Shown in pieces: positions 1,448-37,720 of a stretch of 53,224 bases of DNA. Origin of the DNA: a virus. Position 1 is the stretch's first letter; every line of letters begins with the position of its first letter. The DNA lies in IMG/VR virus record IMGVR_UViG_3300036791_000129, positions 1-53,224 of that record; one strand, given 5' to 3'. A model generated the notes under the pieces. The model searched no databases and was not told where the DNA came from. It saw only the letters and a program-made list of their open reading frames with translations. The translations under genes were made by a program, and so were the position numbers.

Positions 1448-2588
1448 TTTTATTCCCCTTTCACAACTAATATTATTGCGCGATTTCGCGCGCCAGTAGC
1501 GTGCGCTTCTGGCGGTTGAATCGCAACTAGAATCTGCGCCTCACATGCACTTTTCATTTGACCGCCCTAGTTGCTTGGCGCACGCTATTGGCCAAGGGGA
1601 AAGCACATGTTGCACGATACTAGTTGAATCGCGCCAGTAGCGCACACCTTGCATAGTTATTGACGCCTTAACCTTGTGCATTGCTTGCAATGCGCCAGGG
1701 TTTAGTTGCGTCTAGTCAACTTCATCCTGGCGGCTGCCAGGATCGTAGGTGTGCGCCACTTTATATAGTTACGTTGTTATGTAACGCTGAATAGGCGTTA
1801 CGTAGTAACGTGATTATGTAAAGCTTACTCTTGGCGCGCCAGGAAGTAGGTCAGTTTCGCTGTCCTATTCCTGGTGCTAAATAATGAGACTAACCCGCTA
1901 GGCAGTTATGCCCTAGCGGGCCGTCCTGGCCCGTGACTGGTCCCCTGGCCCTATATACGGGCCAGGGTGCAGCTTAGGCCCGCTGTAAGCCCGTCCTAGG
2001 CCCGTTCCGGGCCATCCTGGCATCGTGACTCCCCTGTTGCCTGACCCACTAGCCCAGCACAACCACGGTGCTAGTCAAGTCAACCGTGGTCACATGCTCG
2101 CGAGCCAGGGGCCAACCATAGGTTGTAGAAAAATATCTTGCACACCTACCCAGGGTAGGCTATGGTTCCATTTACTACGTTGACTACACGAAATGATCTT
2201 TGACATTCGAATCTGACCAGGGAAGCAATCACGCGATGGTTGCCACTCTGCTGTTTGGTGCCGGTCTGCAAGTAGCCTTGCCATGTTGGGATGCGTTCCT
2301 CTTGTGCAATTAGATGATGCGAAAGCGATTGGATAGCCTGACAGCTTATGCGCGCCACACTGGCGCGCCCAATGGGCCGCACAAGCGGTCTTGCTTCGCG
2401 ATTTGGTTCCTTGGTTGGCATTCACACTCATTGAAGCTTTGAATCTGGTTTGCATCGGTAGAGCGTAGCGCAAGCTACATACTCGCCGATGATTCCGTTG
2501 TTTCCTTTCAATCTAGGGATTCGCGCTCATAGTAGGCTTGACCCGAACTGGCGCGATGTAATGCAACTAGTATGTTAACAACATACTA
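1448..2588. other. Gene-free divergent control region: candidate origin, operator array or structured RNA
   Basis: No credible ORF; the 2090..2473 and 2146..2421 ORFs have non-protein-like composition. Perfect hairpins lie at 1894..1920, 1918..1932, 1943..1967, 2062..2090, 2114..2167, 2350..2368 and 2568..2588. The 60-nt lines starting at 1921, 1981 and 2041 count 68%, 67% and 58% G+C, in a visibly AT-richer genome. Confidence 0.6.
1975..2020. repeat. Four tandem degenerate 11-12-bp units: taggcccgctg / taagcccgtcc / taggcccgttcc / gggccatcctgg
   Basis: Read directly from the sequence. The period is about one helical turn. A related tggcccgtgac lies at 1927. Confidence 0.6.
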
Positions 2589-2619
2589 ACTGTGACAAGT
2601 CAGTACCAATGCAGAGTTA
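2589..2619 (+). promoter_or_regulatory. Early promoter-like element 1: hairpin actg-TGACAAGT-cagt plus a GAGTTA box
   Basis: Member of a six-copy family. The loop hexamer TGACAA resembles -35 TTGACA. The box lies 15 nt downstream, and the ATG at 2648 follows 28 nt after the box. Confidence 0.5.
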
Positions 2620-2647
2620 AACCTTAATGAAACAAGGAAACTTAAAC

Positions 2648-2821
2648 ATGCGCAAATCACTGATGAAAATGCACGCGCAACTTGAAACCATGTTGTCGCG
2701 CGCACAGGAACTTACTGACAGCGAGAATGAAGATACTGCTAGCAAATACGATGATGTGGCAGGAGAACTTGATACAGCATTAGATGCTATCACTAATGCA
2801 ATGGATATTCTGAACGACTAA
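2648..2821 (+). CDS. Small acidic helical early protein (57 aa)
   Basis: The ORF track starts at 2627. I prefer ATG 2648 because caAGGAAActtaaacATG matches the leader of the other early genes. The protein is rich in D/E. Confidence 0.55.
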   Translation: MRKSLMKMHAQLETMLSRAQELTDSENEDTASKYDDVAGELDTALDAITNAMDILND

Positions 2822-2832
2822 ATGCAGAGTGG

Positions 2833-2852
2833 CGCGCCAGAAGCCTGGCGCG
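2833..2852 (+). terminator. GC-rich hairpin cgcgccag-aagc-ctggcgcg after the first early gene
   Basis: 8-bp perfect stem, followed only by TT, so the U-tract is weak. Confidence 0.4.
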
Positions 2853-2876
2853 TTAATGCACCCAACATAATGTTGG

Positions 2877-2909
2877 CCAGTCACAAGTCTGGATATTGTG
2901 CATTAGTCA
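2877..2909 (+). promoter_or_regulatory. Early promoter-like element 2: hairpin ccag-TCACAAGT-ctgg plus a TAGTCA box
   Basis: 17-nt spacer between the loop hexamer and the box. Enclosed by the inverted repeat TTAATGCAC (2853..2861) / GTGCATTA (2898..2905). Confidence 0.5.
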
Positions 2910-2936
2910 AACCTAGTAAATGAATGGAAATTGAAA

Positions 2937-3632
2937 ATGTTAAGCAACGGAAACAATGGCGTTCTGGTTACTCTGTGTAAGCAGAATCCGGCCGAAATCA
3001 TTCGCAGTGGTGGTATTATCATGCCATCGCCGCGCGTCAATCGCCAGCGCGTAGAGACAATGATCAAATACATTGTTTGTTGTACCGAAGCGCATGGCAA
3101 TGCATTCCTAATCGGAACGGTTGACAAGGTGATTTGGGTTAATGATGAATGCGTAATCAAAATCAACAGTTACGCAAGCATCAACCGCTTACAGGTTTGG
3201 GCTGATGTGGGCACCAAGATTGGCTTTGCCTACTTACAAAGCCCGAGTCAGATTCACATGCATGTTGGTCGTTTGAAGTTCACCAACATCAATGGGAATG
3301 GCAAGTATGGCGATTCCAATAGCTATACTGACGATTATCTGGCCAAGCGTGAGGCGGAAAATTCAACTGCCAAAGCGCAAGCTTCGGTAATCGAGCCCAC
3401 AGAAACCAAGAAAAGCGCCATTGTAGTTTACCCAAAGCCTAAGCAGGAACTTGTTTCACATGTTGACCGCATCGCCACTTTGCGTAAGCAGCTTGCGGAA
3501 CTGGAATCCAATCGCAACGCGATTGCGAAGGAACTAATCGCAAAGTTACATGATCGCGTGACTCAAATGGACGATACTCAAGTTGAGCGCGTGATTGCGT
3601 TTTGCGAAAGGATGCTTGACGAAACCGCCTAA
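2937..3632 (+). CDS. Hypothetical early protein (about 231 aa) with a C-terminal coiled-coil-like segment
   Basis: ORF track 2931..3632 (TTG start). ATG 2937 lies 27 nt after the promoter-like box. Confidence 0.6.
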   Translation: MLSNGNNGVLVTLCKQNPAEIIRSGGIIMPSPRVNRQRVETMIKYIVCCTEAHGNAFLIGTVDKVIWVNDECVIKINSYASINRLQVWADVGTKIGFAYLQSPSQIHMHVGRLKFTNINGNGKYGDSNSYTDDYLAKREAENSTAKAQASVIEPTETKKSAIVVYPKPKQELVSHVDRIATLRKQLAELESNRNAIAKELIAKLHDRVTQMDDTQVERVIAFCERMLDETA

Positions 3633-3643
3633 TTGCAGAAGGG

Positions 3644-3671
3644 AACGCGCGCAATAATATGCGCGCGTTTT
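3644..3671 (+). terminator. Rho-independent terminator aacgcgcgc-aataatat-gcgcgcgtt followed by TTTT
   Basis: 9-bp GC-rich stem followed by a T-run. It lies immediately after the stop at 3632. Confidence 0.7.
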
Positions 3672-3694
3672 AATGCATCATTGCACAAGCGATG

Positions 3695-3727
3695 GCCGTC
3701 CTAAATCGGCATGTTATGCATTAGCTA
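3695..3727 (+). promoter_or_regulatory. Early promoter-like element 3: hairpin gccg-TCCTAAAT-cggc plus a TAGCTA box
   Basis: 17-nt spacer. The outer inverted repeat TAATGCAT (3671..3678) / ATGCATTA (3716..3723) carries a compensatory C:G to T:A change relative to copies 2 and 5. Confidence 0.5.
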
Positions 3728-3756
3728 ACCTAGTGAAGCAAAGGAAAATTGAAACA

Positions 3757-4011
3757 ATGGCACATCCTGAAAACTGGAGTCATATGACTACAGTGGAGAA
3801 ACGCGAGAATGCTAAGAAGCTTTTCAATTCTCCACGCGGTCATTTGATCATTGGTCAAGCTTTGGCGCGTGCAATCCTAATCATGCGTACCGCGGAACAT
3901 CCTGAACGTTCCAACATCGAAGATATGGAATGTTTGGGCATGTTGTTTGAACCGTGGTTTACGATTCACATGAAGCCGATTCCGCCAAACTTGACGAAAG
4001 TGAAGGGATAA
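3757..4011 (+). CDS. Hypothetical early protein (84 aa)
   Basis: The track ORF starts at 3673, but 3673..3756 is the conserved terminator/promoter cassette. aaAGGAAAattgaaacaATG at 3757 fits the early-gene leader. Confidence 0.55.
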   Translation: MAHPENWSHMTTVEKRENAKKLFNSPRGHLIIGQALARAILIMRTAEHPERSNIEDMECLGMLFEPWFTIHMKPIPPNLTKVKG

Positions 4012-4014
4012 CAA

Positions 4015-4221
4015 ATGGCATACGTTTCGCCGAATGCTAAAAGCAAGAAGCAACTCAAAGATTGGCTTGCAGCGGGTAAGTCAATTGAAGTGTTTCAACC
4101 GGGAATGGGAACCATTCCCCTTACTGGCAAGGTTTACCTTGAAGGCCCGCACTATCCTGCGCCACATACTTGGTACGCAGAAGGGATGATGCAGGATGGT
4201 AAACTGGTCAAGGTGAAATAG
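4015..4221 (+). CDS. Hypothetical early protein (68 aa), GPHYPAPHTWYAEG motif
   Basis: ORF tightly packed behind the previous gene (3-nt gap). Confidence 0.6.
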   Translation: MAYVSPNAKSKKQLKDWLAAGKSIEVFQPGMGTIPLTGKVYLEGPHYPAPHTWYAEGMMQDGKLVKVK

Positions 4222-4223
4222 CC

Positions 4224-4493
4224 ATGCTCAAGTTTGACCGCAGTGAGTTCCGCAATGTTGCGCGTGCGATACTAGCGCACAACAAATATGCGAAAGGTGA
4301 TACGATAGACAATATCGTAAGCAGAATGGAAAGCCTAGCCCATTACTATGATCCTAACGCGCCGCATAGTGGGCAGGGGAATGCATGGCATAGCTTTGTT
4401 GCAACTTACGGATTCCTCTTGCTAGGCTATATTGATCAAGAAGGGAATCATTGCATTAAAGCTGCTGTGAGTGACCACTTGTTCGCAATATGA
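4224..4493 (+). CDS. Hypothetical early protein (89 aa)
   Basis: ORF 2 nt after the previous stop, followed by a terminator. Confidence 0.6.
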   Translation: MLKFDRSEFRNVARAILAHNKYAKGDTIDNIVSRMESLAHYYDPNAPHSGQGNAWHSFVATYGFLLLGYIDQEGNHCIKAAVSDHLFAI

Positions 4494-4500
4494 CTACCAA

Positions 4501-4530
4501 GCTTCTGGCCCGTGCAAGCGGGCCAGAAGC
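4501..4530 (+). terminator. Hairpin gcttctggcccg-tgcaag-cgggccagaagc
   Basis: 12-bp perfect stem directly after the stop at 4493, followed by acgTTTaa. Confidence 0.55.
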
Positions 4531-4549
4531 ACGTTTAATGTGGCCAATG

Positions 4550-4583
4550 CCCGTGACAAGCCGGGATGCAAAACACAGAGTCA
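4550..4583 (+). promoter_or_regulatory. Early promoter-like element 4: hairpin cccg-TGACAAGC-cggg plus a GAGTCA box
   Basis: 18-nt spacer. ATG 4614 lies 30 nt after the box. Confidence 0.5.
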
Positions 4584-4613
4584 AACGTGCAACTAATACT
4601 AACAGGAAACAAC

Positions 4614-4850
4614 ATGACGCAAAAAGATTACGTTGTGATTTCACAAGCAATCAAAAACGTTTTGCTTGCGTATCCTAGCAATGAACGAGTCGCAGCGAAA
4701 ATAGCTTTCGCCATTGCTAACGCAATGAAGCGTGACAATCCAAACTTTCGATATGGATTGTTTATGAAAGCTTGCGGCATCAGAATTGATGCCGATGCTC
4801 CGCCAGTTAGCCCGGCAATGGGCGCGTTCAGTGTGATAAAGGAAAGCTAA
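4614..4850 (+). CDS. Hypothetical early protein (78 aa)
   Basis: The track ORF starts at 4566, inside the promoter cassette. acAGGAAAcaacATG at 4614 fits the shared leader. Confidence 0.55.
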   Translation: MTQKDYVVISQAIKNVLLAYPSNERVAAKIAFAIANAMKRDNPNFRYGLFMKACGIRIDADAPPVSPAMGAFSVIKES

Positions 4851-4851
4851 C

Positions 4852-5070
4852 ATGACAGAAGTGTTCTGGATTGGCGATCCACCAGACCAGTGCAACATTT
4901 GTGGTAGTGAAATAACTACCACTTTTGTTGATGGGCGCACGCGCGCGCATGGTTCATGGGCGTGCATGTGCCTTGCCTGTCACCAAGGCTATGGCGTTGG
5001 TCTCGGTACTGGTAATGGTCAAGTGTTCACTAAGCAAGATGATGGCCAGTGGTTAAAAGTAGAAGGTTAA
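4852..5070 (+). CDS. Small Cys-rich (zinc-ribbon-like) early protein (72 aa)
   Basis: CNICG...CMCLAC gives two Cys pairs. The start is adjacent to the previous stop. Confidence 0.6.
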   Translation: MTEVFWIGDPPDQCNICGSEITTTFVDGRTRAHGSWACMCLACHQGYGVGLGTGNGQVFTKQDDGQWLKVEG

Positions 5071-5093
5071 CTAACAAACGGAATGCAGAAGGG

Positions 5094-5121
5094 AACGCGC
5101 GCCAGTAATGGCGCGCGTTTT
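5094..5121 (+). terminator. Rho-independent terminator aacgcgcgcc-agtaat-ggcgcgcgtt followed by TTTT
   Basis: 10-bp GC stem plus a T-run. It is a paralogue of the 3644 terminator and shares the upstream AATGCAGAAGGGA. Confidence 0.7.
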
Positions 5122-5139
5122 AATGCACTGGCATTGCCA

Positions 5140-5174
5140 GCGAGTCCTAAGTCTCGCATGTTGTGCATTAACTA
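5140..5174 (+). promoter_or_regulatory. Early promoter-like element 5: hairpin gcgag-TCCTAAGT-ctcgc plus a TAACTA box
   Basis: 18-nt spacer. Outer inverted repeat TTAATGCAC (5120..5128) / GTGCATTAA (5163..5171). Confidence 0.5.
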
Positions 5175-5202
5175 ACCCTAGTAAATGAAAGTGAAAAGTA
5201 AA

Positions 5203-5577
5203 ATGAATCTCTCGCTTGATGGTGTCACTATTGTTCTGAGTGACACAATGCTGGATCAATTAGCCGAAGTGGTAAAGCGCAAGCTTTGTCTTGATGCTTT
5301 TGAAGCCAAGGTAACTGCTGATATCGAGGATATTGAATCCAGGCTTGATGGCAGTGATTTGGAATCCAAAACTGAGGAACTTGATTCTAAAGTTGATGAT
5401 TTTGAATCCAAAGTTGAGGAACTTGATTCTAAAGTTGATGATTTTGAATCCAAACTTGATGATTTGGAATCCAAAATCAATGCTGCGGAATCCAGCACAG
5501 ATGGCGTGCGCAAGCTAGTGCGCGCGTTGCGTAATGCTTTGACGGTTTATGAAGATAATCAAATCGAAACGGAATAA
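5203..5577 (+). CDS. Highly acidic tandem-repeat coiled-coil early protein (about 124 aa)
   Basis: The track starts at 5185; ATG 5203 lies 28 nt after the box. It contains ESK(T/V)EELDSKVDDF repeats. Confidence 0.6.
   Translation: MNLSLDGVTIVLSDTMLDQLAEVVKRKLCLDAFEAKVTADIEDIESRLDGSDLESKTEELDSKVDDFESKVEELDSKVDDFESKLDDLESKINAAESSTDGVRKLVRALRNALTVYEDNQIETE
5362..5445 (+). repeat. Two 42-bp tandem repeats with degenerate flanking copies, inside the acidic early gene
   Basis: gaatccaaa(ac/gt)tgaggaacttgattctaaagttgatgatttt at 5362..5403 and 5404..5445. Confidence 0.85.
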
Positions 5578-5584
5578 CTACTAC

Positions 5585-5616
5585 ACTCCTGGCGCTTGCG
5601 CGCCAGGAGTATTTTT
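5585..5616 (+). terminator. Rho-independent terminator actcctggcgc-ttgc-gcgccaggagt followed by ATTTTT
   Basis: 11-bp perfect stem made of both orientations of the over-represented motif, followed by a T-run. It lies directly after the stop at 5577. Confidence 0.75.
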
Positions 5617-5634
5617 GCTTTTAAACAGCCTATG

Positions 5635-5667
5635 TCCGTGACAAGCCGGAATGAAAAATGTGAGTCA
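5635..5667 (+). promoter_or_regulatory. Early promoter-like element 6: hairpin tccg-TGACAAGC-cgga plus a GAGTCA box
   Basis: 17-nt spacer. The stem differs from element 4 by a compensatory pair (C:G to T:A). Confidence 0.5.
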
Positions 5668-5703
5668 AAAGCAAACCTAAATTGACAAGGAAAGTGAAAC
5701 AAC

Positions 5704-5937
5704 ATGATAAAGCCAAAAGCCTCGCATGGTGACTATGAAGGAATGCATCCATTCAAAAATGGCCATGGCCATTTTGAAGTGTTCTGGATTAGTAACAATA
5801 CTGAAGGCTTTGAAAGTTGCGAGCCAGGATGGTACTGGTGGACTTGCGAGCCAGGATGCTTGCCTGACTCCGAGCCTAACGGACCATTCAACACTAGCTA
5901 CATGGCATGGCGCGATGCGAAAGGGTTAGACCAATGA
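5704..5937 (+). CDS. Hypothetical early protein (77 aa), GWYWWTCEPGCLPD motif
   Basis: ORF with an aAGGAAAgtgaaacaacATG leader. Confidence 0.6.
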   Translation: MIKPKASHGDYEGMHPFKNGHGHFEVFWISNNTEGFESCEPGWYWWTCEPGCLPDSEPNGPFNTSYMAWRDAKGLDQ

Positions 5938-6161
5938 CTCGGCATTATAAATATCAAGTGCAAGTTAGAGATGGCAACAACTCTAAAGTTACACTTGATG
6001 GCGTTGTCGAGTGTGAATTTGTCAACGTTTTTGATCGCGTTATATCCGAAACGTTTGGCATTTTGACTCATGGTGAAGCTTTGTATGGACACCCTGGACA
6101 TGGTTGCGTTGGTCCATATAAAGTGATTCGCGTTCTTATAACCAGTGTAGGCTCGCAATGA
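5934..6161 (+). CDS. Hypothetical early protein (75 aa)
   Basis: The track starts at 5907. ATG 5934 forms an ATGA overlap with the previous stop, suggesting translational coupling. Confidence 0.5.
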   Translation: MTRHYKYQVQVRDGNNSKVTLDGVVECEFVNVFDRVISETFGILTHGEALYGHPGHGCVGPYKVIRVLITSVGSQ

Positions 6162-6862: not shown

Positions 6863-7047
6863 TAGAAACTCAAATCATTGATTTCAAATTGCTACGTATG
6901 GAATGCTGCGGTCATTTACTTTGTTGGATAAATCCGCGCTTTCCTACTTACTGTCCTGAATGTGGCAAAGGTTGCTATCCAGCTTGTAAAGGCTGGATAA
7001 CACTGCATCCAACTTATGCAAGACTAACTTATGAAATAATAAGATAA
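6859..7047 (+). CDS. Small zinc-ribbon protein (62 aa)
   Basis: CCGH...CPECGKGC cluster. ATGA overlap with the previous gene. Confidence 0.5.
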   Translation: MIETQIIDFKLLRMECCGHLLCWINPRFPTYCPECGKGCYPACKGWITLHPTYARLTYEIIR

Positions 7048-7051
7048 AACG

Positions 7052-7079
7052 GAAGCTACTGGCGCGGGCCAGTAGCTTC
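7052..7079 (+). terminator. Hairpin gaagctactggc-gcgg-gccagtagcttc
   Basis: 12-bp perfect stem 5 nt after the stop at 7047. No T-run; its 3' arm is shared with the 42-bp palindrome. Confidence 0.45.
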
Positions 7080-7114
7080 TATAACGTAACCAATTGGTTA
7101 CGTTATAGAAGCTA
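7073..7114. repeat. Perfect 42-bp palindrome tagcttctataacgtaaccaattggttacgttatagaagcta
   Basis: Checked base by base. The centre is CCAATTGG and it contains ACGTAAC/GTTACGT half-sites. It overlaps the expected -35 position of the promoter for the 7149 gene. Confidence 0.9.
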
Positions 7115-7148
7115 ATGCTTCATCCCCTAGTAAATGAAAGGAAAGCAA

Positions 7149-8276
7149 ATGAAACTAACGGAAAAACGCAAGCCTAGTTTGGCTGATATATTTGTCAATC
7201 AACGATTCGATAATCTCTCGCGAGCGCGAGTGCCATTGAAAACGATTGCAGATATACAAGTCAAAGTTAGGCGCGCAAAAAAGTATCTGTTTGATGATGC
7301 CGCAAGTATTCGCGTTGCTGAAGTTGTGCGCGATATTCCCGAATTACTAATCAGGGAAAGTAAATTCGCGCGCGCACCCTACGAACTAACTTGGATTGAA
7401 TTTAATTCAAGTTTGTTCTGGCAAACCTTGCATGATGATGTAGGACATGAAGATCATGCTAGAAATATTGGCATCTTGATTGATGGCGATATGGTGATCA
7501 CTATAACAGGTGGTTATCCATCTGATCCATTGACCACCATGCTTACACCTTTCGCCTACGGTTTGAATACTGACCCTGATCAATGGCGTATGCTTGGTGC
7601 GCCAGAATCAAACTTGAAAACAAGTTTGACAGTGAAACAAATACCCATTGACCAGTTTATGCAAACCGTAAATCGTTTCTATTGGGGATCAACTGCTGCA
7701 AGCATACCTGATGAAATCTTAAACCCCATCAGTAAAAACTTCAGTAGTTGGGCAATAATCGAACGAGTACTTCATTTGTCCGAAAAAAAGTTGTTATTCG
7801 TAATGAAGGAATGCCAAGGCGATTTGCGCAACATCATTGCGTTACTGTTGATGTTGAATCGTCCTAGCATAACCCGCTATGTGCAAGACTTGCCAAACCG
7901 TCGCGGTTTCTTGCGCAACAAGTTGATCGCCTATCAAGCGCATACATCAGTCACAGTATCGCTTGATCCTAAGCCAATCTTGAAATTGATTGGCACACCG
8001 CAAGGTGAGTCAGTTGAACGTCGCTGGCATGAAGTGGAGGGTCACTATTGCCACGATAGAACATCACGCGATTACGCAAGAATCGCAGGTTGCTTGCATG
8101 ATTGGCAAGATACAGATGATGAATGGACGCTACTGCGCCAGGGTCACGCACATTCAAAAGTTGAACACTGGATTTGCAAGGCATGTGGTGGCAAGCGTTG
8201 GTGGCGTGATTCACATTCACGCGGCAATCCGCTTATTGGCATGGTGAAAAGAGATCAATACAATGTCGTGCCATAG
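7149..8276 (+). CDS. Hypothetical protein (about 375 aa) with a C-terminal Cys/His cluster
   Basis: The track starts at 7134; aAAGGAAAgcaaATG favours 7149. C-terminus: HYCHD...CLHDW...HWICKACGGKRWW. Confidence 0.65.
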   Translation: MKLTEKRKPSLADIFVNQRFDNLSRARVPLKTIADIQVKVRRAKKYLFDDAASIRVAEVVRDIPELLIRESKFARAPYELTWIEFNSSLFWQTLHDDVGHEDHARNIGILIDGDMVITITGGYPSDPLTTMLTPFAYGLNTDPDQWRMLGAPESNLKTSLTVKQIPIDQFMQTVNRFYWGSTAASIPDEILNPISKNFSSWAIIERVLHLSEKKLLFVMKECQGDLRNIIALLLMLNRPSITRYVQDLPNRRGFLRNKLIAYQAHTSVTVSLDPKPILKLIGTPQGESVERRWHEVEGHYCHDRTSRDYARIAGCLHDWQDTDDEWTLLRQGHAHSKVEHWICKACGGKRWWRDSHSRGNPLIGMVKRDQYNVVP

Positions 8277-8311
8277 GAAATAACGGAATCAAGCAAACCA
8301 GATTTAAAGCC

Positions 8312-37686: not shown

Positions 37687-37720
37687 CTAAACTTTTCCGC
37701 CAATTGGCGGAAAAGTTTAG
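37687..37720. repeat. Perfect 34-bp palindrome, copy 2; identical to 593..626
   Basis: Exact match. It extends to 36 bp (37686..37721) and lies 15 nt upstream of the terL ATG. Confidence 0.9.

Follow-up and report, generated by a model that had tools for sequence, protein, structure and literature searches.

Self-cleaving ribozymes of the twister family (Rfam clan CL00120) are known in the circular permutations P1 (twister-P1, RF03160) and P5 (Twister-P5, RF02684). They combine the stems P1, P2 and P4, optional stems P3 and P5, a double pseudoknot (T1 and T2), a U^A cleavage site and a GAG with the catalytic G after strand P2', and all these features recur in the elements described here. In the O. 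sativa twister, the counterparts of the catalytic G and of the A on the 3' side of the scissile bond are G45 and A7, respectively; stems P1, P2 and P4 are essential to the fold, and P1 is dispensable for cleavage in vitro (PMC5408937). An association of bacterial and phage twisters with phage genes has been published, and their biological role was described as undetermined (PMC6765202). For hammerhead ribozymes found in clusters on either side of single prophage genes, cleavage in vitro and a proposed role in the processing of long phage transcripts have been described (Perreault et al., 2011, PMC3088659). We analysed a stretch of 53,224 nucleotides (nt) of viral DNA (IMG/VR record IMGVR_UViG_3300036791_000129, positions 1 to 53,224; hereafter the window), in which six small elements, numbered e1 to e6 along the + strand, are very probably twister self-cleaving ribozymes, as judged from their sequence. 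That they are twister ribozymes transcribed within the + strand early messenger RNA (mRNA) of a tailed phage is given a probability of roughly 0.85. They are new members of an established family in an arrangement type that is already known, and the peculiarities of this locus are the presence of two permutations in one operon, rare variants of T1 and T2 and an additional pairing strand, termed ALT.

Several known systems place processing or regulatory elements between phage genes. In the early region of T7, host RNase III cuts the polycistronic early mRNA at long interrupted duplexes. There, as here, the cuts lie between genes and a stable 3' hairpin is found on each upstream message, whereas the window RNA is predicted to cut itself, which would leave 5'-OH and 2',3'-cyclic phosphate ends. 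RiboJ, an engineered hammerhead-based insulator that standardises the 5' end and insulates expression from upstream sequence, shares with the window elements the order of a self-cleaving ribozyme, a hairpin and then the ribosome-binding site; the elements described here would be a natural, twister-based counterpart. Small hairpins or terminator-promoter modules are also repeated between early genes as N4 hairpin promoters, lambda boxB and T4-type PeSL, from which the window elements differ in loop size, pseudoknot partners, active-site nucleotides, covariance match and the absence of a promoter consensus. The prophage hammerheads, too, form series of self-cleaving ribozymes, spaced by a few hundred nt, that bracket individual small uncharacterised phage genes, and the proposed processing would give mRNAs of gene length (PMC3088659); these hammerheads belong to another ribozyme class, and the window mixes two permutations in six copies within 3.1 kb.

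The assignment to the twister family is based on the Rfam covariance models, on which all six elements gave matches on the + strand. Three of them match Twister-P5 (gathering score 37.6 bits): e2 (2816-2908, Rfam core 2823-2892; 53.7 bits, E 1e-9) and e5 (5084-5171, core 5084-5156; 40.2 bits, E 3.4e-6) pass the gathering score, and e3 (3629-3724, core 3634-3710; 36.6 bits, E 2.8e-5) is 1 bit short of it. The other three match twister-P1 below its gathering score of 67.2 bits, namely e1 (2555-2622; 42.1 bits, E 3.5e-7), e4 (4530-4589; 32.1 bits, E 2.7e-4) and e6 (5614-5675; 25.2 bits, E 1.1e-3, from a search of a short region of 141 nt). Over the rest of the window, Rfam returned nothing significant. 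RNA folding yielded for e2, e3 and e5 a three-way junction of an outer repeat, a variable hairpin, which is the optional stem P3, and a hairpin with a conserved loop. The outer stem was CACGUUU/AAACGUG in e4 and UUUGCUUUU/AAAAGCAAA in e6.

Every helix of the six elements was checked pair by pair by coordinate, the defining features being taken from PMC5408937. None of the six copies lacks P2 (3-4 bp) or P4 (4-5 bp), both of which show compensatory changes, and P1 (7-11 bp) pairs in five. Both T1 (2 bp) and T2 (3 bp) form in every copy, each in three compensatory states, with one G.U pair in e1: in T2, nucleotides 2-4 of loop L4 read GAC, CAC or CCU against GUC or GUU, GUG and AGG, respectively, and in T1, nucleotides 7-8 of L4 read GC, GU or AU against GC, AC and AU. 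Since T1 and T2 lie outside the covariance models, their pairing is independent evidence. The sequences of P1, P3 and P4 differ in nearly every copy, which argues for old duplicates whose shape was kept by selection, and a G.U pair in P3 of e3 points to RNA rather than DNA as the folded molecule. Conserved throughout are the scissile U^A, the A that follows it (UAA), the catalytic G on the 3' side of P2' and, at positions 5-6 of L4, AA. As in the rest of the family L4 has 8 nt, reading UNNNAARY here and UCCCAAGC in the consensus (CGG-UCCCAAGC-CCG including P4). Differences from the family are a T1 that in four copies reads AC:GU or AU:AU where the family has GC:GC, T2 triplets of GAC, CAC or CCU instead of CCC, the absence of P3 from e4 and e6 and of P1 from e1, and the ALT strand that the type-P5 copies add outside the model.

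A first-pass annotation of this DNA, made from the sequence alone, had described six hairpins with a conserved 8-nt loop, each followed by a NANNNA box, and had discussed them as promoter-like or protein-bound elements. Both strands of the whole window were scanned for the loop pattern T(G/C)(A/C)(C/T)AA(G/A)(T/C), and the region 2300-6000 was read directly. Hairpins, boxes and spacings are all present as described, between 2589 and 5650: the loops start at 2593, 2881, 3699, 4554, 5145 and 5639 on stems of 4-5 Watson-Crick pairs, and the gaps between loop and box are 15, 17, 17, 18, 18 and 17 nt from e1 to e6. The pattern occurs 100 times on the two strands, and in seven cases the loop is closed by a stem of 4 bp or more, where about 0.4 would be expected. 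Six of these seven are e1 to e6, all intergenic, on the + strand and within 3.1 kb; the seventh (TGATT-TCACAAGC-AATCA, 4636-4653), inside the gene 4614-4850, has no twister flanks and no Rfam match and probably arose by chance.

The conserved-loop hairpin is stem P4 with loop L4, and the earlier argument that a conserved loop on a covarying stem makes the folded form important is borne out by the twister match and the pairing. Other parts of the description hold in their measurements and change in meaning. The sigma70-like distances are real and follow from ribozyme geometry instead of from a promoter. The sequences of the six boxes were given correctly, including their final A in every copy, but they are not one shared feature. 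In e1, e4 and e6 the box (GAGTCA or GAGTTA) consists of the conserved GAG, whose first G is catalytic, and then the T2 strand that pairs with nucleotides 2-4 of L4; in e2, e3 and e5 it belongs to the P5/ALT strand, and the T2 partner and the catalytic G are found upstream of P1, in UGCA-GAGUG or UGCA-GAAGG. Five elements had been placed just downstream of a GC-rich terminator, which is true of a separate hairpin only for e4 and e6; in e2, e3 and e5, what had been taken for a terminator is stem P1, as arranged in the circularly permuted type P5. Also recovered in these three copies was the outer inverted repeat, TTAATGCAY...RTGCATTAR, and e3 shows the compensatory exchange (C>T / G>A) noted earlier. 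For annotation, the lesson is that a pseudoknot can mimic sigma70-like spacing between loop and box and that a ribozyme stem can pass for a terminator.

The type-P1 copies are predicted to be cleaved at U2559^A2560 (e1), U4536^A4537 (e4) and U5622^A5623 (e6). In e1, P2 pairs 2562-2565 with 2610-2613, T1 2566-2567 with 2599-2600, P3 2568-2576 with 2580-2588, P4 2589-2592 with 2601-2604 and T2 2594-2596 with 2616-2618; L4 (UGACAAGU) occupies 2593-2600 and the catalytic G is G2614. The fold of e4 comprises P1 (4530-4536/4583-4589), P2 (4539-4542/4574-4577), T1 (4543-4544/4560-4561), P4 (4550-4553/4562-4565) and T2 (4555-4557/4580-4582), with L4 at 4554-4561 and G4578 as catalytic G. Directly upstream, RNA folding revealed a GC-rich hairpin (4503-4528) with no strong T-run and not flagged as a terminator, which may be the optional twister stem P0. 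The corresponding helices of e6 are P1 (5614-5622/5667-5675), P2 (5625-5627/5659-5661), T1 (5628-5629/5645-5646), P4 (5635-5638/5647-5650) and T2 (5640-5642/5664-5666), with L4 at 5639-5646 and the catalytic G5662. This copy is preceded by a strong intrinsic-terminator-like hairpin (5585-5610; 8 G-C among 11 pairs) with AUUUUUGCUUUU after it, and the T-run doubles as the 5' strand of P1 of e6.

For the type-P5 copies, cleavage is predicted at U2854^A2855 (e2), U3671^A3672 (e3) and U5121^A5122 (e5). Element e2 contains P5 (2816-2821/2903-2908), the P1 hairpin (2832-2853), P3 (2862-2876), P2' (2824-2826) and P2 (2857-2859), T2' (2829-2831), T1 (2860-2861/2887-2888) and P4 (2877-2880/2889-2892), with L4 at 2881-2888 and the catalytic G2827. 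In e3, the P1 hairpin (3643-3670) is accompanied by P2 (3674-3676/3635-3637), T1 (3677-3678/3705-3706, AU:AU), P3 (3679-3694, with its one G.U), P4 (3695-3698/3707-3710) and T2 (3700-3702/3640-3642), L4 (UCCUAAAU) lying at 3699-3706 and the catalytic G at G3638. The equivalent features of e5 are the P1 hairpin (5093-5120), P2 (5124-5126/5085-5087), T1 (5127-5128/5151-5152), P3 (5129-5139), P4 (5140-5144/5153-5157), T2 (5146-5148/5090-5092), L4 (5145-5152) and the catalytic G5088. The candidate 5' strand of P5 spans the stop codon of the upstream gene, at 2816-2821 (GACUAA/UUAGUC, e2), 3629-3633 and 5066-5070. A ribosome terminating at such a stop codon would cover P5, P2' and T2', so that, speculatively, translation could influence the folding of the ribozyme.

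The ALT strand of e2 (GUGCAUUAG, 2898-2906) overlaps the 3' strand of P5 and is the complement of 2853-2861 (UUAAUGCAC), a segment comprising the cleavage site together with the P2 and T1 strands. In e3 and e5, the ALT strand lies at 3716-3724 and 5163-5171, respectively, and the outer inverted repeat of the first-pass annotation corresponds to the two strands of the ALT helix. The 3' fragments that predicted cleavage would leave of e2, e3 and e5 fold with a 7-bp helix (AAUGCAY/RUGCAUU) flush at nt 1. Before cleavage, the active and the ALT fold lie within about 4 kcal/mol of each other, pseudoknots not counted; with so small a modelled gap, ALT should not block catalysis, yet could take over once the strand has been cut. 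In a mechanism of product trapping, the strand AUrUUrUGCAUUAr would compete with P2, T1 and P5 and, after cleavage, zip onto the new 5' end, which would free the upstream RNA and shield the 5'-OH message. The single compensatory change of e3 is common to three partners, the nucleotide after UGCA, position 7 of L4 (T1) and the ALT strand, and fits selection on both folds in a sample of three copies. Among 59 unique type-P5 twisters, a complement of at least 7 nt to the 5' end of the product was found only in the three copies of this window, and shorter complements were barely above the shuffled expectation. The ALT complement is therefore specific to this lineage and not a feature of the family. 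A metagenome scan for twisters with an ALT strand gave no match.

Each of the six copies lies on the coding strand between a stop codon (for e1, the leader) and the next Shine-Dalgarno (SD) sequence and ATG. The ribozymes probably punctuate and stabilise a polycistronic early mRNA. A long transcript beginning upstream of 2555 would cut itself at the six predicted U^A sites into mRNAs of one to three genes. The upstream products would end in a GC-rich 3' hairpin with a 2',3'-cyclic phosphate, this hairpin being P1 in type P5 and the separate hairpins 4503-4528 and 5585-5610 for e4 and e6, respectively. The downstream products would carry a 5'-OH buried in structure. A type-P1 copy would keep the whole ribozyme fold around the 5' end; in type P5, P2' and T2' would depart with the upstream fragment and the downstream RNA would refold into the ALT helix. 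With structured ends on both cleavage products, each message would be insulated and shielded at its 5' and its 3' end. Part of the transcription may, in addition, stop at the T-runs that follow the hairpins of e3, of e5 and upstream of e6, which would give nearly the same 3' end. Terminator calling flagged 5585-5610, as strong, and P1 of e3. Four U's follow in the case of P1 of e5, two for P1 of e2 and none for the hairpin upstream of e4, the U's pairing within P1, and the U-run is a strong one at 5585-5610 and a weak one in the P1 hairpins of e3 and e5.

Two narrow DNA patterns were used to find further type-P5 twisters in IMG/VR. They were detected in 74 viral-contig loci, again just upstream of SD-ATG. 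Rfam analysis of 11 of these loci usually revealed one twister past the gathering score per 10-14 kb, by which measure six copies in 3.1 kb are unusually dense; one of the 11 also carried a pistol ribozyme, and the locus L034 had two pattern matches. Two related contigs with the same gene layout, L023 and L024, were reached through homologues of the 231-aa protein encoded at 2937-3632. Neither twister nor any other Rfam family was detected in them. Nearly every gap in L024:9230-14880 and L023:1840-3500 instead contains a repeated hairpin element, present in at least 15 copies. It consists, after the stop codon, of CGGAAC-CACA, a covarying hairpin (UAGCCAGA...UCUGGCUA) and then UUGGGCUGUCU; the hairpin often includes an inner hairpin with a GCAA loop, and a second small covarying hairpin (CUGCC-GUAU-GGCAG) often precedes the ribosome-binding site. 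At a permissive threshold Rfam assigned this element to no family, and an IMG/VR scan with the pattern CGGAAC...GGCTGT gave two matches only, both due to chance and within coding sequence. The element could act as a signal for processing or for stability, or as a self-cleaving motif with the same job. The equivalent gaps of 60-100 nt comprise just the hairpin and the ribosome-binding site and leave no room for a promoter. Blocks of this kind appear to be polycistronic. The sequence ACGGAA(C) recurs directly after + strand stop codons in the window (5078-5083, 7049-7054 and 8284-8289) and at most gene ends in L023 and L024.

In a third relative, L080, a type-P5 twister is located directly upstream of the homologue of the gene 7134-8276. 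Its P1 (GCUACUGGCG/CGCCAGUAG) resembles a plain hairpin at 7052-7079 of the window. The latter is part of a cassette upstream of the gene 7134-8276 (7040-7134), with hairpins at 7052-7079 and 7081-7108 and no twister core, in which a third copy of GAAGCUA permits an alternative pairing and whose leader, CCTAGTAAATGAAAGG, is shared with e2 and e5. Given this likeness, the cassette looks like a twister whose core was replaced or has decayed, and cassettes seem to be interchangeable in this lineage. An early operon composed of exchangeable 'RNA punctuation cassettes', with a product-trapping switch in the P5 copies and a different element in relatives, is a possible but doubtful extension of these observations.

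Several findings weigh against active ribozymes with a role in this operon. The three type-P1 copies stay under 67.2 bits, partly because e4 and e6 have no P3, and e3 misses 37.6 bits by 1 bit; e1 has no convincing P1. At several positions of L4 and T1, A-U or G-U takes the place of the usual G-C, and activity could be lower for that reason. With a strong terminator ahead of it, e6 would be made on read-through only, and there may be internal promoters of some other type. The lack of twisters at the equivalent positions of L023 and L024 argues that the ribozyme is not essential to the gene block. Part of this evidence would also suit elements that are derived from twisters, are catalytically weak or dead and are kept as structured spacers, in the form of terminator or stability hairpins or recombination-prone borders. 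Four of six scores lie below the gathering score, e1 is without P1, the 7040-7134 cassette resembles a twister whose core was swapped for a plain hairpin and the relatives have a non-ribozyme hairpin element at the same places. Such a loss of function is nevertheless improbable: the catalytic and pseudoknot positions are kept in all six diverged copies, with changes that are compensatory and not disruptive, a retention not expected without selection for the active fold, and e2 and e5 pass the gathering score.

The view of the first-pass annotation that an ordinary linear promoter is less likely was right. A search for sigma70-type promoters on the + strand of 1450-5703 gave no match. Promoters of this type consist of TTGACA and TATAAT separated by 16-18 nt, with A2 and T6 as conserved positions of the -10 hexamer. 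It is very improbable that each cassette is a promoter in which a -35-like hexamer in the hairpin loop acts together with the NANNNA box, either as in N4 or with an unusual sigma factor. The 15-18 nt from hexamer to box, the 27-36 nt from box to ATG and the agreement of GTGACA in e1, e4 and e6 with five of six positions of TTGACA would be in line with it, but loop and box of these three copies are complementary and covary, which identifies them as the pseudoknot T2 and not as two polymerase contacts. The loop partner of e2, e3 and e5 lies upstream, so that the boxes do not form a single feature, only two of the six positions of TTGACA are matched by e3 and e5, the conserved final T is missing from every box and the whole element matches a ribozyme model with E down to 1e-9. 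N4 early promoters have a stem of 5-7 bp and a 3-nt loop and are used by a giant virion RNA polymerase. The N4-like DNA hairpin that had been put forward does not agree with loops of 8 nt or with the matches to twister covariance models, and the sole open reading frame (ORF) of that size class, the largest in the window with 1605 aa, matches a tail-fibre family in a genome that is incomplete. The other candidate, an RNA hairpin, stands as such; its proposed role as a boxB- or operator-like site for a phage antiterminator or translational repressor has little to recommend it beside the twister matches. A covarying stem with a conserved loop, placed on the sense strand with terminator-like hairpins just ahead of it and ribosome-binding sites behind it, is what such a site would look like, but the loop nucleotides are explained by their covarying distant partners in T1 and T2, the flanking conserved UAA and GAG are the twister active site and family searches identified no N-like or coat-like protein. 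A site for an extracytoplasmic function (ECF) sigma factor (GTCAAA, like the RpoE -10) was dropped since the box pairs with the loop, and an RNase III site and a put-like antiterminator were dropped once the ribozyme match had been found.

The window as a whole is a fragment of a tailed-phage genome with a G+C content of 41%. Terminase, portal, tape-measure and baseplate genes, two helicases and a DNA polymerase are encoded on the - strand between 8.8 and 53 kb, and about 15 small genes of unassigned function lie on the + strand between 2.6 and 8.3 kb. According to ORFs and gene calls, the small genes served by the ribozymes are 2648-2821, 2937-3632, 3757-4011, 4015-4221, 4224-4493, 4614-4850, 4852-5070, 5185/5203-5577 and 5704-5937. 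Protein family searches on the small + strand genes gave no informative match. Within the gene 5185-5577, a unit of about 33 nt (GATTCTAAAGTTGATGATTTTGAATCCAAA...) is repeated in tandem at 5330-5480 and codes for a coiled-coil-like repeat; the family matches of this gene are weak and to coiled coils only. A DNA similarity search of GenBank phages against the window found no match, the terminase is at most 53% identical to that of known phages, and a tRNA scan of the window found none. An IMG/VR search for relatives with three window proteins returned none, and the sole return of an exact-protein look-up was an identical contig of 4.8 kb, so that there was no natural variation to compare. The same 30-nt palindrome (AAACTTTTCCGCCAATTGGCGGAAAAGTTT) is present at two distant gene ends (594-627 and 37687-37720) and is likely a bidirectional terminator.

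Upstream of the small-gene block, a non-coding stretch of about 1.1 kb (1450-2555) that is richer in G+C separates divergent gene blocks. One or more early promoters probably lie within it, and perhaps an origin or a packaging site. It is full of short repeats (CCTGGC, GGCCCG and GCCAGTAGC), Rfam assigned it to no family, and L024 has a comparable gap of 910 nt. A 20-mer, ATTCCGTTGTTTCCTTTCAA, is identical in the window (2492-2511), just upstream of the first cassette, and in L024:9220-9239, within otherwise unalignable non-coding DNA. It equals the reverse complement of the ribosome-binding-site consensus of this lineage, TTGAAAGGAAACAAC, plus GGAAT. A leader RNA carrying it would be complementary to the ribosome-binding sites, and cleavage at e1 would part this leader from the mRNA.

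With six diverged copies, two permutations, capping hairpins and relatives in which a plain hairpin element is found instead, the locus offers a compact natural test of the idea that ribozymes punctuate and stabilise the polycistronic mRNAs of phages.

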